From a virus (taxonomy: Duplodnaviria; Heunggongvirae; Uroviricota; Caudoviricetes), in the IMG/VR virus record IMGVR_UViG_2778261428_000003, positions 1 through 38,430 of that record: a stretch of DNA of 38,430 nucleotides; one strand, given 5' to 3'. The notes under the pieces are model-generated. The model was given only the letters and a program-made list of their open reading frames with translations, was not told where the DNA came from and did not search any database. The first letter of the stretch is position 1. Every line of letters begins with the position of its first letter. The position numbers and the translations under genes are program-made. Positions 2,784-37,039 of this stretch are shown piece by piece.

Positions 2784-3368
2784 TTACTCCGGATATTTAA
2801 AAATTACGTAGGTATGCGAAGGACAGAGTTTGTTAAGCACACACTCGACAACGGTGTCGCCCCAGATACGCAGTGCGGAATCACAGGGATCGCCACATGT
2901 CATCCAGGTGGTGTTGGTGGCGGCTGGCATGTTGACCTGCCAGTAATACCGCCATTCCGGCGCATTCACAGCGTCAGTGCAGGCTGATGAGCAGGTGAAC
3001 GTGCTTTTGTCGTATCGCGTGATGGTAGCGTCTGATCTACCCAGGGCAGCAAGCTGTGCAAGGTAAAAATCCTCATTGATGCCGCCCGCCAGGTTAACCT
3101 TCGCATCCAGTCGTTGCTGACGCTGGCGAAGGGTCTGTGTCCCTGCGGGAATACATTCATCCGGCAGGCTGCACAGACGCTCCCAGCGGTTTATCAGTTC
3201 GGTGGTGGTGCGCGGATCCAGCTCCCGCATCAGGGCATCCGCACGCTGATGAACACGAGTTAATGACGGTGCCGCACCGGCAATCGCCGGATCGCTGGCT
3301 GACCACGCCGGACCGGGCGGCAGCAGTGCCGACAACAGACGGATGTAATCATCGTTTGTCACGTCCAT
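2784..3368 (-). CDS. ymfQ: DUF2313 family tail protein (Mu gp48-like, e14 YmfQ-like), 194 aa
   Basis: Length and position between baseplate J and tail fibre; recognised from translation; recalled similarity to e14 YmfQ. Confidence 0.65.
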
Positions 3369-29985: not shown

Positions 29986-30075
29986 ACAATGTGTACCTCC
30001 GGTGTACATATTACATGATTGAAATGAACCTTCAAGATACTTGTACCTTAACGGTACAAGGGTTTTAATTTCGTT
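29986..30075. promoter_or_regulatory. Immunity-region operator/promoter (OR-like): divergent pR and pRM candidates
   Basis: Palindrome cTTGTACC-ttaac-GGTACAAg at 30040-30060 and second tgtacc-containing site at 29991-30009; minus-strand TTGAAG-N16-TAATAT candidate promoter for cro. Confidence 0.6.
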
Positions 30076-30750
30076 ATGAAAACAATCCATGACATCCGGC
30101 GGTCTAACGCCAGAAAACTGAGAGATGGTGTTGGCGGGAATTCTTCCTTTGCCACTATGATTGATCGCGAGCCAACCCAGACCAGCAGGTTTATGGGAGA
30201 TGGTGCTACTAAAAATATCGGTGACAGCATGGCACGACACATCGAAAAATGTTTCGACCTGCCTGTCGGATGGCTCGATCAAGAACACCAGACAACGAAC
30301 ATCACAAAAAAACCTGATGTTTCAATCACTAATAAACAAATCACATTAGTCCCTGTCATATCATGGGTACAGGCCGGAGCATGGAAAGAAGTTGGATATT
30401 CTGAGGTTGATTTGAGCACAGCAGAAACGTATCCCTGCCCTGTACCCTGTGGGGAAATGACTTATATCTTGCGGGTGATAGGTGATTCAATGATTGATGA
30501 GTACCGCCCGGGAGACATGATTTTTGTCGATCCTGAAGTACCTGCCTGCCACGGTGACGACGTTATTGCATTGATGCACGATACAGGCGAAACCACCTTC
30601 AAAAGGTTGATAGAAGATGGGACACAGCGTTATCTCAAAGCGTTAAACCCAAACTGGCCTGAGCCTTACATTAAGATCAACGGTAATTGCTCTATAATTG
30701 GTACAGTGATTTTCTCAGGAAAACCAAGAAGATACAAAATCAAAGCCTAA
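30076..30750 (+). CDS. cI: CI-like repressor (HTH + S24 LexA-type peptidase)
   Basis: C-terminal GDSM ... K dyad of S24 peptidases; N-terminal XRE-like HTH; no Shine-Dalgarno (possibly leaderless). Confidence 0.8.
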   Translation: MKTIHDIRRSNARKLRDGVGGNSSFATMIDREPTQTSRFMGDGATKNIGDSMARHIEKCFDLPVGWLDQEHQTTNITKKPDVSITNKQITLVPVISWVQAGAWKEVGYSEVDLSTAETYPCPVPCGEMTYILRVIGDSMIDEYRPGDMIFVDPEVPACHGDDVIALMHDTGETTFKRLIEDGTQRYLKALNPNWPEPYIKINGNCSIIGTVIFSGKPRRYKIKA

Positions 30751-30762
30751 TCAATGTTTATG

Positions 30763-30787
30763 AACCTGCTTCGGCAGGTTTTTTTAT
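30763..30787 (+). terminator. Rho-independent terminator after cI
   Basis: aacctgc-ttcg-gcaggtt followed by TTTTTTT. Confidence 0.65.
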
Positions 30788-30789
30788 AC

Positions 30790-30823
30790 TTGACAATGTA
30801 CCTTTGAGATACATAATGTACCC
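30790..30823 (+). promoter_or_regulatory. Strong sigma70-like promoter with overlapping operator half-sites (pL/OL candidate)
   Basis: TTGACA (30790-30795), 16-bp spacer, CATAAT (30812-30817); AATGTACC repeated at 30795-30802 and 30815-30822, same half-site as OR. Confidence 0.55.
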
Positions 30824-30943: not shown

Positions 30944-31219
30944 ATGAAAGTCCAGATTTTAAACAATAACTGTGAAGTCGTTTGGTCATACGACATAGCC
31001 GCCCCTGTAGATCAGAGCGGCGATAGCTGGACCAATGGGAAACATCAGATTATGGCTGGAGTTGTGTTCTCTTTACGCCGTGCTTTGGAACAGGCTGAAG
31101 TATTTCCATCAGACCCTGAATGGAAATGGCCTTTTTCTATTTGTCCAAATTCTGAGAGTACATTTCAGAAAATTGGTCAGAAAGTCGCACTCGAAGAGCA
31201 TCAGCCAACTGTTTCCTGA
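30944..31219 (+). CDS. Hypothetical 91-aa protein, first gene downstream of the pL candidate
   Basis: Start set at ATG 30944 (MKVQIL...) preceded by AGGTG; ORF-track start 30923 lacks a Shine-Dalgarno. Confidence 0.4.
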   Translation: MKVQILNNNCEVVWSYDIAAPVDQSGDSWTNGKHQIMAGVVFSLRRALEQAEVFPSDPEWKWPFSICPNSESTFQKIGQKVALEEHQPTVS

Positions 31220-31382
31220 TTTTTTCAGGTAACTCGTCGGCATCGCAGAAACAACAACGATCGATCATGTTGAAAGCCGATTCGTAAAACTGTTTCTGCT
31301 GAGTGTCGCTGAGACAGGAAAAGAGCGACGTTACGATGATTTTATTAATTGCATTATCAAGTTCTTTTTCATCAAAAGTCAT
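31137..31382 (-). CDS. Hypothetical 81-aa protein, convergent and overlapping
   Basis: ORF in locally AT-rich DNA; overlaps the 3' end of 30944..31219 by about 80 nt. Confidence 0.3.
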   Translation of the reverse strand: MTFDEKELDNAINKIIVTSLFSCLSDTQQKQFYESAFNMIDRCCFCDADELPEKIRKQLADALRVRLSDQFSEMYSQNLDK

Positions 31383-31681
31383 TTGATTTTCCTTTTATGT
31401 ATACGGGCTTAAAAGGATACCACCGAGCCTGAAGTGGTGAAAAGACAGGCACATAACAGCTAAGTATTTTCAACCAGAGAGAATCCTTAGCGTTGTGGTG
31501 AATGCGGCTCAGCGCACGCGGGTTAAGGTTGAGGCTGACAGTCGACCTTCTGTGGATACCCACCCGTCTGGTGTGCAACCTTCGCCAGGCACCGGGAGGC
31601 ACCCGGCACCACAACTTTATGCTGTGCGTAGTCCTGGCGGTACCAGTTTGTACCCTTGCTTCCGGCTGGTACCGTCCTTTT

Positions 31682-31770
31682 TACAAAACAGAGAAGAGCA
31701 TCACCGGACGACGGGCTCATAACCCAATCCATCCGGGCGGCTGCCACCGCAGGTGTTCTTCTCTGTTTTG
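31682..31770 (+). other. Long inverted repeat (18-bp stem) in the untranslated leader upstream of yfdP-like gene
   Basis: acaaaacagagaagagca ... tgttcttctctgttttgt (one G-U), enclosing about 50 nt of GC-rich sequence. Confidence 0.5.
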
Positions 31771-31819
31771 TGGAGAAACCAACCGGCCTTGCAGGGTCGA
31801 TATGATGAGGAGCAGCAAA

Positions 31820-32182
31820 ATGGCTAGCGAACGCAGTACTGATGTGCAGGCATTTATCGGGGAGCTGGACGGCGGCGTATTTGAAACCAAAATCGGCGCA
31901 GTTCTCAGTGAAGTCGCTTCCGGTGTGATGAACACGAAAACCAAAGGTAAGGTCTCGCTCAACCTGGAAATCGAACCATTTGATGAGAACCGTGTGAAAA
32001 TCAAACACAAACTCTCATATGTTCGCCCGACTAACCGTGGGAAAATTTCCGAAGAAGACACCACCGAAACGCCGATGTATGTCAATCGCGGTGGTCGCCT
32101 GACTATTCTGCAGGAAGACCAGGGACAATTACTGACTCTTGCCGGTGAGCCTGACGGAAAACTCCGCGCAGCAGGTCATTAA
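31820..32182 (+). CDS. yfdP: YfdP-like prophage protein (120 aa)
   Basis: Start at ATG 31820 (MASERSTDVQAFIGELDGG...); gene order matches CPS-53 yfdPQRST block from memory. Confidence 0.55.
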   Translation: MASERSTDVQAFIGELDGGVFETKIGAVLSEVASGVMNTKTKGKVSLNLEIEPFDENRVKIKHKLSYVRPTNRGKISEEDTTETPMYVNRGGRLTILQEDQGQLLTLAGEPDGKLRAAGH

Positions 32183-35443: not shown

Positions 35444-37039
35444 ATGGCTGAAGCAGCAAAAAAAACTCCACAAAAGCTGAATGAAAAAAAAGGCTCAACA
35501 TCAGCATCATCACTTGAGATTGTGAATTCACGACAATCAAAAGATATTTATCTTGGATTGTGTGGATATGTTGGATGTGGCATGAGAACGATAAACAAAA
35601 TTATCGAAGAGATATCCAAAGAATGGGGGTATAATGTTGTACACATCCGCATAAGTGCGCTTATGGAAAACCCATTATATTTTGAGCCAGCAGCACTGGA
35701 GGTATCCGAAAGCACACAAGTTAATAGACATTTAAAACTCCAGGATATTGCCAATAAGCTTCGTAAACATTACAAAAAAAATGAGTTGCTTGCAGAAGCT
35801 GCTATTGCAGCAATCGCAGCAGAGAAAAATAATATTGATTATAATAATGATGAATATAAAGGTACTGTCTTCATCATTGATCAATTCAAAAGGCCGGAAG
35901 AAATAGAGTTATTCAGAGTTATATATCAGCATAATTTCTATTTATTAGGAGTTTTGCGCGATTTAGATTACCGAATTCCGAATCTCATTGCTGACGAATC
36001 GACAAAGGACGACCTTCATTTAATTATCAATATTGATAATAAATCCTCTGATCCGTATGGACAAAGAACCGGGGAAACCATTCTTGATTCAGATTTTTTT
36101 ATTAAAAATAACTTCAGCCAAAAAAGTGAATTAAAGAAGAAGATTGATCGGTTTTTCGGTCTTATTCATGGCAAAAATGGTTTAACACCAACTTTTAACG
36201 AGAAAGGTATGTATGCTGCCTTTTCAACATCATTACAATCAGCTTGTTTATCACGTCAAGTAGGGGCTGCACTGTTTGATGATGAAGGGAATTTGCTTGC
36301 CGTGGGTAAGAACGACGTACCTAAAGCTGGTGGCGGGTTGTATAGCAGTGATGATTTTGATAACGATCATCGATGCGTTCACAAAAGTGGTAAGTGTTAT
36401 AATGATGCAAACAAGCTAAAAATTAAAGACCGTATAAAAAGCATATTATCAACCGAAGTAAGAAATGTATTAGGTATTTCCGCAGGACAAACTGTTGCCG
36501 ATATTAATATAACACGACTTCTAAACAAATTAGATAATATTGCAGAAGGCATTTACAAAGACAGCAAAATATCAAGTGTAATGGAGTATTCCAGATCAAT
36601 TCATGCTGAAATGGACGTCATTACATCAATGGCTAGAAAACAAAACGGCGATACTAAAGATAAAATTCTTTTTACGACAACCTATCCCTGCCACAACTGT
36701 GCAAGGCATATTGTCGCAGCTGGAATAAAAAAAGTAGTATATATAGAGCCATTTGATAAAAGCCTTGCTCTTGATCTGCATAATGATGCAATAACAAAGA
36801 ACGAAGAATCATCCAAAGTAATATTTTGTGATTTTGAGGGGGTATCACCCCGCCGCTACCATAAATTTTTCAGACCAACGGATGAACGTAAAGATGATAA
36901 AACAGGGACTGCAAATAAATTTAATGCTCGCTACAAAAATCATATAGATGTTCAATATCTTGATGATTATAGAAAGTATGAGACTGTTGTAGCTAAGAAA
37001 TTTATAAACGAGATTGCTAAACCAGAGTCTCAGCCATAA
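35444..37039 (+). CDS. avcD: AvcD-like antiphage deaminase: N-terminal P-loop-like domain fused to C-terminal cytidine/dCMP deaminase domain
   Basis: Zinc-dependent deaminase signature H-A-E (aa 387-389, SIHAEMDVI) and P-C-x-x-C (aa 415-419, TYPCHNCARH); Gly-rich loop GLCGYVGCGMRT at aa 38-49; 531 aa; AT-rich; between xis and int. Confidence 0.8.
   Translation: MAEAAKKTPQKLNEKKGSTSASSLEIVNSRQSKDIYLGLCGYVGCGMRTINKIIEEISKEWGYNVVHIRISALMENPLYFEPAALEVSESTQVNRHLKLQDIANKLRKHYKKNELLAEAAIAAIAAEKNNIDYNNDEYKGTVFIIDQFKRPEEIELFRVIYQHNFYLLGVLRDLDYRIPNLIADESTKDDLHLIINIDNKSSDPYGQRTGETILDSDFFIKNNFSQKSELKKKIDRFFGLIHGKNGLTPTFNEKGMYAAFSTSLQSACLSRQVGAALFDDEGNLLAVGKNDVPKAGGGLYSSDDFDNDHRCVHKSGKCYNDANKLKIKDRIKSILSTEVRNVLGISAGQTVADINITRLLNKLDNIAEGIYKDSKISSVMEYSRSIHAEMDVITSMARKQNGDTKDKILFTTTYPCHNCARHIVAAGIKKVVYIEPFDKSLALDLHNDAITKNEESSKVIFCDFEGVSPRRYHKFFRPTDERKDDKTGTANKFNARYKNHIDVQYLDDYRKYETVVAKKFINEIAKPESQP

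Follow-up and report, generated by a model that had tools for sequence, protein, structure and literature searches.

DicF, the small RNA of the Qin prophage of Escherichia coli K-12, owes its 3' end to Rho-independent termination and binds Hfq; it occurs as a 53-nt form that is RNase E-dependent, as a 190-nt species that needs RNase III for its 5' end, and as a 72-nt form that is an RNase III product of read-through mRNA (bioRxiv 10.1101/2023.04.14.536235; PMC5069750). The locus has no internal promoter, DicF being drawn from the operon transcript, and a full-length read-through transcript was not detected (bioRxiv 10.1101/2023.04.14.536235). Members of another RNA family, STnc100, are located downstream of stx2B (PMC12370729) and are expressed in enterohaemorrhagic E. 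coli (EHEC; PMC5331693), and their relative PasD, which is reported to be linked to Q, is a small RNA (sRNA) of 80-240 nt whose stability is Hfq-dependent (PMC8550237). Here we describe a 437-nt leader that stands upstream of the yfdP-like gene of a Caudoviricetes virus (IMG/VR record IMGVR_UViG_2778261428_000003, positions 1 to 38,430; the whole of this 38,430-nt stretch is referred to as the window). We propose, with a probability of roughly 0.6, that the leader is a variant of the cassette found at the Qin dicF locus, that is, a cassette of DicF/STnc100 type whose transcript would be terminated and cut so as to release small RNAs and gate the downstream genes.

The leader is a conserved, highly structured, non-coding and modular RNA. 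Its 440 nt as a whole fold with z = -5.95, its stems covary across many Enterobacterales prophages, and its modules are, in order, a five-way-junction RNA, a DicF-like linker with a terminator (T1), a long stem with a tRNA-like interior, and a last hairpin (hairpin C) followed by the ribosome-binding site (RBS); their coordinates are collected in Table 1. An earlier, sequence-only reading of this DNA had picked out four features here, all of which are present with small corrections, and had missed that the upstream half has an STnc100/PasD-family fold, that the hairpin before the Ts is DicF-like and that what it called a structured loop is tRNA-like. Its description of the leader as GC-rich and poor in open reading frames (ORFs) stood in its first part, with a GC fraction of 0.54-0.58 over 31400-31800 and of 0.38-0.49 in the flanks, and holds only loosely in its second: mechanical ORFs of 49-226 aa cross the leader, none of them conserved, since the spacer at hairpin B, one of the two hairpins inside the long stem, measures 11, 12, 13, 14, 32, 35 or 36 nt among relatives. 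Spacer lengths that are not multiples of three, together with stem changes that are compensatory, are our grounds for calling the leader non-coding. The opposite view would make it a protein-coding region, either a ymfH-like ORF, as in the annotation of e14, or an N-terminal extension of yfdP (ORF 31502-32182). RefSeq does annotate the e14 homologue as a coding sequence (CDS), ymfH, several phage records annotate hypothetical proteins, and an open frame does run from 31502 into yfdP; set against these, the spacers break any frame, the stem substitutions are compensatory, an intrinsic terminator lies inside the putative ORF, and the strong RBS, the GAGGAG (31807-31812) recognised earlier and confirmed here, serves the ATG at 31820 from 7 nt upstream, all of which makes coding highly improbable.

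The likeness to Qin extends over the whole arrangement. In K-12 the order is dicA, dicBp, ydfABC, a first junction RNA (about 2250-2375 of our Qin locus, L330, and of the same type as that of an Erwinia locus, L325), DicF (2384-2435; 76.7 bits with the Rfam DicF model), an STnc100-like RNA and the dicB RBS. The window leader likewise has a repressor gene and an early promoter upstream of it, with one to three small ORFs in between, and the first gene of early-left type downstream, and it shares with Qin the succession of a junction RNA, a linker with a GGCGGUAnCAG... hairpin and U-tract, a helix of 20-21 bp, and an RBS. In both, this long helix begins within 2 nt of the U-tract and closes a multibranched RNA, the Qin helix being of 21 bp and starting 2 nt after the DicF U-tract. 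The two loci differ in what the helix encloses (a tRNA-like three-way junction in the window, an STnc100-like five-way junction in Qin), in the sequence of the linker, or 'seed', for which a crude test detected no ftsZ complementarity in the window, and in the next gene, which is yfdP-like here and dicB in Qin. The STnc100-like junction RNA of Qin (L330 2447-2587, between dicF and dicB; 34.1 bits, E = 1e-5) is unannotated in the RefSeq record.

The long stem itself had been described as an 18-bp perfect stem; the stem stands, its perfection does not, for it comprises 20 contiguous pairs made up of 15 Watson-Crick pairs, a G.U, two further Watson-Crick pairs, a U.G and a C-G. The 89-nt element that it closes (31683-31771) has a folding energy of -45.5 kcal/mol (z = -7.3), and none of 200 shuffles is as stable. 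Conservation and compensation in homologous prophages had been named as the check to be made, and both are found: in an alignment of 21 diverse leaders (A1, covering the long stem and hairpins A and B within it) 95.5% of cells are paired, as against 38-50% when the 3' partners are slid by 1-3 columns, 10 of the 34 pairs change on both sides, and 0 of 500 shuffles reach the observed covariation. The 20 pairs supply the roughly two turns (about 20 bp) of continuous duplex looked for in an RNase III substrate, most relatives having one internal mismatch, and the earlier suggestion of an RNase III substrate-like duplex fits, as the equivalent Qin helix would hold, by published sizes, an RNase III cut.

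The upstream half of the leader folds into a five-way-junction RNA whose closing helix is formed by GUUGUGGUG (31492-31500) and CACCACAAC (31607-31615); inside it are GAAU and four internal hairpins, and CCGGG-AGGCA-CCCGG (31592-31606) makes up its terminal hairpin. At Rfam gathering thresholds there was no match in the window, STnc100 and DicF emerging only in relaxed searches; in these, the STnc100 model matched over its full length with 40.4 bits and E = 3.7e-7, short of the gathering score of 47, and the span of the match, about 200 nt, is comparable to the 190-nt 'long DicF' species. It is the single such copy in the window at E <= 1, with none in the pR operon. With STnc100 and PasD the window RNA shares the GGUG/CACC closing helix and GAAU (31497-31503), a UNNGCG-type loop on the first hairpin, the terminal hairpin followed by CACC (31592-31610), that is ACCGGGAGGCACCCGGCACC, and an intrinsic terminator behind, for a total of about 200 nt. 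It differs from STnc100 in its first hairpin (GCGGC...GCGC, as against CCCCC...GGGG), in its sub-threshold score and in its position, since canonical members lie in late regions, between Q and lysis genes or after stx2B, whereas the window copy is part of an early-left leader, between cI/pL and yfdP.

Searches with the 19-nt motif ACCGGGAGGCACCCGGCACC retrieved more than 120 IMG/VR contigs. Canonical, 'late-type' copies stand behind Q genes of two families (PF03589, PF06530) and before holin/lysozyme genes; 'early-type' copies (first hairpin GCGGC/GCGC) stand between cI and the early-left genes, like that of the window. Because a MAFFT alignment of the junction interiors was too poor for pair counts, the closing helix was analysed directly instead: in 116 distinct cores pairing at its positions -1 to -4 is 69-94% and involves several types of pair, and outside the invariant GGUG/CACC it covaries (U-A/C-G/U.G and G-C/A-U). 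The terminal hairpin has compensatory variants, GGUGG/CCACC and CCUGG/CCAGG, that keep the AGGCA loop. In other Enterobacterales, constant GUUGUGG and CCACAAC strands enclose an interior that is hypervariable; mEp460 and Stx2a_1447, whose BLAST match covers the second half of the query only, have a divergent junction RNA with the same closing helix; and two relatives (L306, L314) are without the junction RNA and keep the terminator and long stem, hairpin 0 and GAAAAGACAGGCNCA directly preceding their terminator.

Two observations on the arrangement of these cores may be recorded here. In 24 of 96 distinct late-type cores, and in 0 of 89 controls, GTGAAT is preceded, at a distance of exactly 9 nt, by the end of a sigma-70 promoter (TTGACx-17/18-TAAATT-like), and the transcript would therefore begin at the closing helix (IMG/VR loci L012, L015, L020, L027-L029, L079, L093, L100, L101, L117, L122 and others). 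STnc100-type cores also occur in tandem, about 484-492 nt apart, in L012, L025, L044, L063 and L085 (IMG/VR), and in three copies in some loci (L016, L024, L073).

The DicF-like module follows the junction RNA. Its T1 stem, formed by GGCGGUACCAG (31636-31646) and CUGGUACCGUC (31666-31676) and followed by C and UUUUU, is the hairpin with Ts seen before, with a folding energy of -19.7 to -20.5 kcal/mol and z = -3.6. Linker and T1 align with K-12 DicF, matching UGGCGGUAcCAGUUU at 14 of 15 positions, with an equal hairpin size and a 3' end CC(C)UUUUU, and the module repeats the DicF pattern: a 5' arm UUGGCGGUAUCAGUUU, some 40 nt of hairpin and a U-tract, with a place between structured RNAs in a lambdoid prophage's early operon. 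The Rfam DicF model gives 28.4 bits to the corresponding hairpin of a Leclercia prophage (L324; E = 0.04, the search covering 64 kb) and 76.7 bits to K-12 DicF. Behind the core, a terminator-like hairpin occurs in 68 of 91 copies of late type and in 32 of 60 of early type, as against 35 of 147 control windows. The reading of T1 as an intrinsic terminator, conserved and set between the early promoter and the genes of the early-left operon, is supported. A riboswitch-type alternative pairing of the junction RNA with T1 was looked for by eye and no antiterminator sequence was found.

Table 1. Features of the leader and of its surroundings (positions are those of the window)
Feature	Position	Strand	Basis or remark
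cI-like repressor gene	30076-30750	+	next to the operator TGTACCTTAACGGTACA (30042-30058)
cI terminator	30762-30781	+	between cI-like gene and pL-like promoter
pL-like sigma-70 promoter TTGACA-16-CATAAT	30790-30817	+	promoter scan, 11/12 consensus matches
Operator copy TGTACCTTTGAGATACA	30797-30813	+	overlaps pL-like promoter
orf33, 98 aa	30923-31219	+	between pL and leader
81-aa ORF	31137-31382	-	overlaps orf33 over 31137-31219
Leader region	31383-31819	+	bounded by start of 81-aa minus-strand ORF and yfdP-like ATG 31820
Hairpin 0 ACCACCGAGCCUGAAGUGGU	31419-31438	+	5' boundary of conserved module; terminator-like on minus strand
STnc100 (RF02076) match	31462-31684	+	covers junction RNA, linker, terminator; about 200 nt
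Five-way-junction RNA	31492-31615	+	minimum-free-energy fold
DicF-like module	31616-31682	+	single-stranded linker 31616-31635, T1 hairpin 31636-31676, U-tract 31678-31682
Long stem closing tRNA-like three-way junction	31683-31702 with 31752-31771	+	fold, covariation
Hairpin A, anticodon-arm-like	31704-31736	+	three G-C pairs, 7-nt loop CUCAUAA (31716-31722)
Hairpin B GCGG-CUGCCA-CCGC	31737-31750	+	variable arm of three-way junction
Conserved GUGGAGAAAC motif	31770-31779	+	directly 3' of long stem; alignment A1
Hairpin C	31784-31799	+	fold; conserved apical UGCA(G) loop
GAGGAG RBS + ATG	31807-31822	+	serves yfdP-like gene 31820-32182
yfdP-like gene	31820-32182	+	annotated orf32 in SfV

The region is the leader of a repressor-controlled early-left (pL) operon, an assignment that follows from the plus-strand order of cI, pL with its operator, orf33, leader and yfdP, and from the placing of cro and of the Q and lysis genes on the minus strand. 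Downstream of the leader come yfdP-, yfdQ- (DUF2303) and yfdR-like genes, on toward int, and cro, a cII-like gene and replication genes lie on the minus strand together with a lambda-type Q (PF06530) and the lysis genes; the layout of cro, operator, cI, terminator, pL, orf33, leader and yfdP is common to e14, mEp460, Stx2a_1447 and ST64B. The operator copy at pL, TGTACCTTTGAGATACA, is 76% identical to the cI-adjacent TGTACCTTAACGGTACA (30042-30058). As a query, the 437-nt leader is 99.1% identical to phage SfV, matches SfII, SfIV, mEp460_4F5, ST64B and others, and finds 2785 of 5426 complete E. coli genomes; its host element, itself 99% identical to SfV, is an N-less lambdoid prophage of SfV/ST64B/e14 type. 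orf33 and the 81-aa minus-strand ORF, which have no significant Pfam match, correspond to ymfJ and ymfI of e14, and a pL transcript would cross the 81-aa ORF in antisense. The first gene behind the leader varies among relatives, being YfdP-like or resembling RdgC by its N-terminal sequence, and the leader is for that reason an exchangeable module.

The pL-like promoter is the likely source of the leader transcript. One might instead suppose an autonomous sRNA gene, in which an STnc100/DicF-like RNA is made in lysogens from a promoter of its own (about 31429-31457) and ends at T1, with no part in a pL leader. The start of the Rfam model aligns to 31462, a weak CTGAAG-17-CATAAC element can be read at 31429-31457, many late-type relatives carry a strong promoter of their own, and the EHEC copies of STnc100 are expressed (PMC5331693). 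We nonetheless consider this unlikely: a scan of the plus strand between 30818 and 31492 gave no promoter above threshold, and the candidate of a promoter inside the leader was dropped on that ground; the strong promoter is pL; and Qin, where DicF comes from the operon transcript, has no internal promoter (bioRxiv 10.1101/2023.04.14.536235).

Synthesising these findings, we suggest the following course of events for a leader of the Qin type. Transcripts from pL, starting at about 30825, would cross orf33 and fold into the STnc100/PasD-family five-way-junction RNA, and most would end at T1 to give a species of about 200 nt that consists of the junction RNA, the DicF-like 3' hairpin and its U-tail; trimming of this species by RNase E or RNase III would then yield a DicF-like, Hfq-binding small RNA of about 60 nt. 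Any transcript that reads through T1 would at once form the 20-bp stem, where an RNase III cut would part the small-RNA portion from the yfdP-yfdQ-...-xis-int mRNA and leave the latter with a new 5' end just upstream of hairpin C and the RBS. If T1 stops transcripts and the stem is cut in this way, T1 would thus be both attenuator and insulator, and the long stem a processing site. Observed here are the structures with their covariation, the lack of coding in the region, and its homology, in sequence and position, to the dicF and STnc100 loci; termination, processing by RNases III and E, and Hfq dependence have been shown in Qin, and it is from there that we infer the same steps and cleavage positions for the window. 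By published sizes, the point 190 nt before the DicF 3' end in Qin would fall within a few nt of the base of its first junction RNA, and the point 19 nt beyond that end would fall inside the 5' strand of the 21-bp helix.

Several points weigh against a cassette of this type. Putative membership in the DicF and STnc100 families lies below the Rfam thresholds and is argued from transitive similarity and synteny, the DicF model (RF00039) giving 13.5 bits and E = 6.5 at 31623-31677, where its gathering threshold is 48 bits. The closing helix of the junction RNA, at 9 bp, is short for RNase III, and one column pair of the long stem (24-118) is mismatched in 15 of the 21 leaders of alignment A1, so that a helix without interruption is a peculiarity of the SfV group. 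In a crude duplex test the DicF-like linker was no better matched to ftsZ than shuffles were (window RNA against ftsZ -60..+30, fraction 0.79), though the test gave only 0.067 for DicF itself. An efficient T1 would leave no known route to the expression of xis, int and the recombination genes in an N-less phage, and the near-invariance of hairpin A is not explained by processing.

The sequence-only reading had offered the element as an attenuator, a processing site or a cis-acting antitermination RNA, and the first two fit what we find, namely a conserved terminator and a helix equivalent to that of Qin. The third, a put-like RNA, gained no support. It would have the junction RNA bind RNA polymerase and carry it through T1 and later terminators in place of N, and it has some appeal: the N gene is absent from SfV, SfII and SfIV (PMC3851460), no N-family protein was matched in Pfam among the ORFs scanned flanking the leader, boxA-like matches in a boxA/nut search were not above chance and none was suitably placed, and the junction RNA sits between pL and the first terminator, just where putL and nutL sit. 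As with put of HK022, it would be a cis-acting RNA between an early promoter and the first terminator of a lambdoid phage without N, and late-type cores resemble putL in their layout of promoter, RNA and terminator, 24 of 96 having the promoter that ends 9 nt before GTGAAT and a terminator standing about 49 nt later in 75%. However, put is a two-stem RNA of about 70 nt that begins at +1 of pL and is repeated after pR, whereas the window element is a single copy with a five-way junction and with none in the pR operon; putR shows no similarity to it, and putL no more than a marginal 22-nt local match (p about 0.03, uncorrected) in a different fold. Some relatives that keep T1 and the stem dispense with the junction RNA, its interior is hypervariable, unlike what a polymerase-binding RNA would show, late-type copies stand behind Q genes of two families where antitermination is already supplied, a lambda-like phage has a relative between its nutL and N, and in Qin the full-length read-through transcript was not detected (bioRxiv 10.1101/2023.04.14.536235). 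Taken together, these make put-like antitermination decidedly unlikely. The related proposal that the long stem would account for the missing N gene is not supported either, as the stem lies downstream of T1 and therefore cannot affect termination there.

Another leader that bears comparison is that of the lambda N gene, which reportedly holds an RNase III-sensitive structure (a finding attributed to Kameyama et al. 1991 and Wilson et al. 2002). It too has a long helix closing a multibranched RNA between pL-proximal signals and the RBS of the first pL gene; it differs in that lambda has nutL and N, in an interior without sequence shared with the window, and in that the window has two separate closed structures with a terminator between them. 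A lambda-like IMG/VR contig (L135 7325-7475) carries a long-helix-closed RNA between nutL (boxA AGCUCUUAA, boxB GCUCUGAAGAAGAGC) and N (PF11438), which starts GGUGAAU-GCGCU..AGCGC, like the junction-RNA family of the window, and whose interior matches positions 237-283 of 16S rRNA (26.6 bits, E = 3e-6), a segment that we take to be helix 11. This interior may be a host rRNA mimic inside an N leader; no host-rRNA-like segments were found in eight other leaders searched.

The interior of the long stem is, as far as sequence comparison and our literature searches (which returned no description of it) can tell, a previously undescribed phage RNA and an added module. Its hairpin A carries CGGGCUCAUAACCC (31712-31725, 14 nt), matching without a difference the anticodon stem-loop of initiator tRNA from E. 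coli (alignment A3, metZ), with the CUCAUAA loop of 7 nt set on three G-C pairs as in tRNA-fMet, and in its three-way-junction geometry, too, the element resembles the product of metZWV. It differs from a tRNA in that it is without a D arm or T-loop consensus, has only three anticodon-like stem pairs and, in the window, has a 20-bp helix without CCA for an 'acceptor'; neither the window form nor the Klebsiella-phage form described below was detected by ARAGORN or by any of 4227 Rfam families. Hairpin B changes on both sides in 3 of its 4 pairs (alignment A1), with a spacer of 11-36 nt among relatives. More than 120 viral contigs carry the motif GACGGGCUCAUAAYCCAAUCC, as do 25 species-representative genomes, most of the latter from Enterobacterales (Escherichia, Shigella, Citrobacter, Enterobacter, Kosakonia, Mixta, Raoultella, Leclercia, Phytobacter, Erwinia, Pantoea and others); since tRNA-like relatives were retrieved using the motif itself, the invariance of hairpin A is overstated, and the e14 and ST64B copies do have loop changes in it. 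A complete leader of enterobacterial type also occurs on a contig labelled Chryseobacterium sp. 18061 (L311), which is probably contamination or mislabelled, and the 19-nt anticodon-like motif recurs in a metagenome-assembled genome of Acidobacteriaceae (L315), there in a differently framed long hairpin between two ORFs.

In late regions of Klebsiella phages a homologous element stands 5 nt after the tRNA-Arg of a tRNA-Asn/tRNA-Arg pair, inside a tRNA gene array, and is closer to a tRNA: it has an acceptor-like stem of 6-7 bp followed by an encoded N-CCA, a lengthened anticodon-like arm, no D arm, and a second hairpin of 5 bp that covaries (CGUUG/CAACG vs CGCUG/CAGCG). This tRNA-like gene, which is unannotated, lies at 3003-3078 of Klebsiella phage GZ7 (L194) and occurs also in L195, L205, L206, L222, L232, L236, L261 and L322; it directly follows annotated tRNAs, tRNA-Asn and tRNA-Arg in GZ7 and tRNA-Asn in Chronis.

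These properties raise the prospect that the tRNA-like element is the functional core of the leader, a mimic of the initiator-tRNA anticodon arm that acts as a decoy for an anticodon nuclease or binds the 30S P site, initiation factor 3 (IF3) or methionyl-tRNA synthetase (MetRS), the long stem doing no more than present it. The 14-nt identity including the three G-C pairs, the standing of hairpin A as the most conserved part of the leader while the stems around it covary, the acceptor-like stem and N-CCA of the Klebsiella-phage homologue behind tRNA-Arg, and the recurrence of the motif in the differently framed Acidobacteriaceae hairpin all speak for it. Against it stand the missing D arm and T-loop consensus, to which the blindness of ARAGORN and of the Rfam tRNA model may be added, the lack of a CCA end in the window form, the loop changes in e14 and ST64B, and the inflation of apparent invariance by motif-based retrieval. 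That a D-arm-less junction with the exact initiator anticodon stem-loop, found in early-left leaders and, with CCA, in late tRNA arrays of Enterobacterales phages, should be a tRNA-fMet mimic is thus a doubtful proposition, and we continue to favour a DicF/STnc100-type cassette. Were it true, the mimic could serve as a decoy that draws off toxins cleaving initiator tRNA, such as VapC/MvpT, or it could be bound by MetRS, IF3 or the 30S P site; translation initiation would in this way be protected or reprogrammed while the prophage is being induced. In a wider view, STnc100, the DicF locus and the N leader, as leader cassettes of lambdoid phages with RNase III sites at their bounds, would then serve to carry mimics of stable RNAs of the host.

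The 3' end of the leader is conserved in its own right. The GUGGAGAAAC motif, for which weak pairing with the T1 U-tract is possible, and hairpin C persist in 'type-D' leaders that are without T1 and long stem (L131 10170-10215), and a related GUGUGGAGUAA is found in leaders without the long stem. Among 56 distinct sequences hairpin C has 23 distinct stems, its commonest apical loops being TGCA (18) and GGCA (17). Two further ideas were dropped. One had the UGCAA loop of the junction RNA kiss the UUGCA loop of hairpin C, but type-D leaders keep UUGCAG without a partner; the other was a short upstream ORF at GUG/AUG-GAG-AAA (31770), which has no RBS, is not conserved in length and comes to 2 codons in type-D leaders.

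Further afield, toward the end of the early-left operon, an ORF of 531 aa (35444-37039) has a cytidine/deoxycytidylate deaminase zinc-binding domain (PF00383, E = 7e-15; also MafB19-like); it may be a moron or have a part in defence or counter-defence. In relatives, annotated antirepressor (Rha/Sb41) genes contain RNAs of the C4 antisense RNA family (80-84 bits) and of the IsrK family (64-67 bits) (L004 823-1011 in mEp460, L005 768-956 in Stx2a_1447, L006 909-1097 in ST64B); neither family has a match in the window.

Finally, our comparison unites the STnc100/PasD sRNAs, the DicF locus and a hitherto unannotated leader as one modular type of prophage early/late leader that is bounded by a long helix, and this unannotated leader is present in about half of complete E. 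coli genomes. In the e14 of K-12 type, the CDS ymfH coincides with the junction RNA, the DicF-like terminator and the tRNA-like stem (L002 3079-3390), and the K-12 'protein' YmfH is probably an RNA region and not a protein gene. A ymfH clone triggers RcaT, the toxin of retron-Sen2, according to a preprint; if ymfH is an RNA, this trigger could therefore be an RNA effect. N-less phages of SfV/ST64B type must pass a conserved terminator in order to express xis and int, and the conservation of so widespread a tRNA-fMet-like RNA calls for a binding partner.

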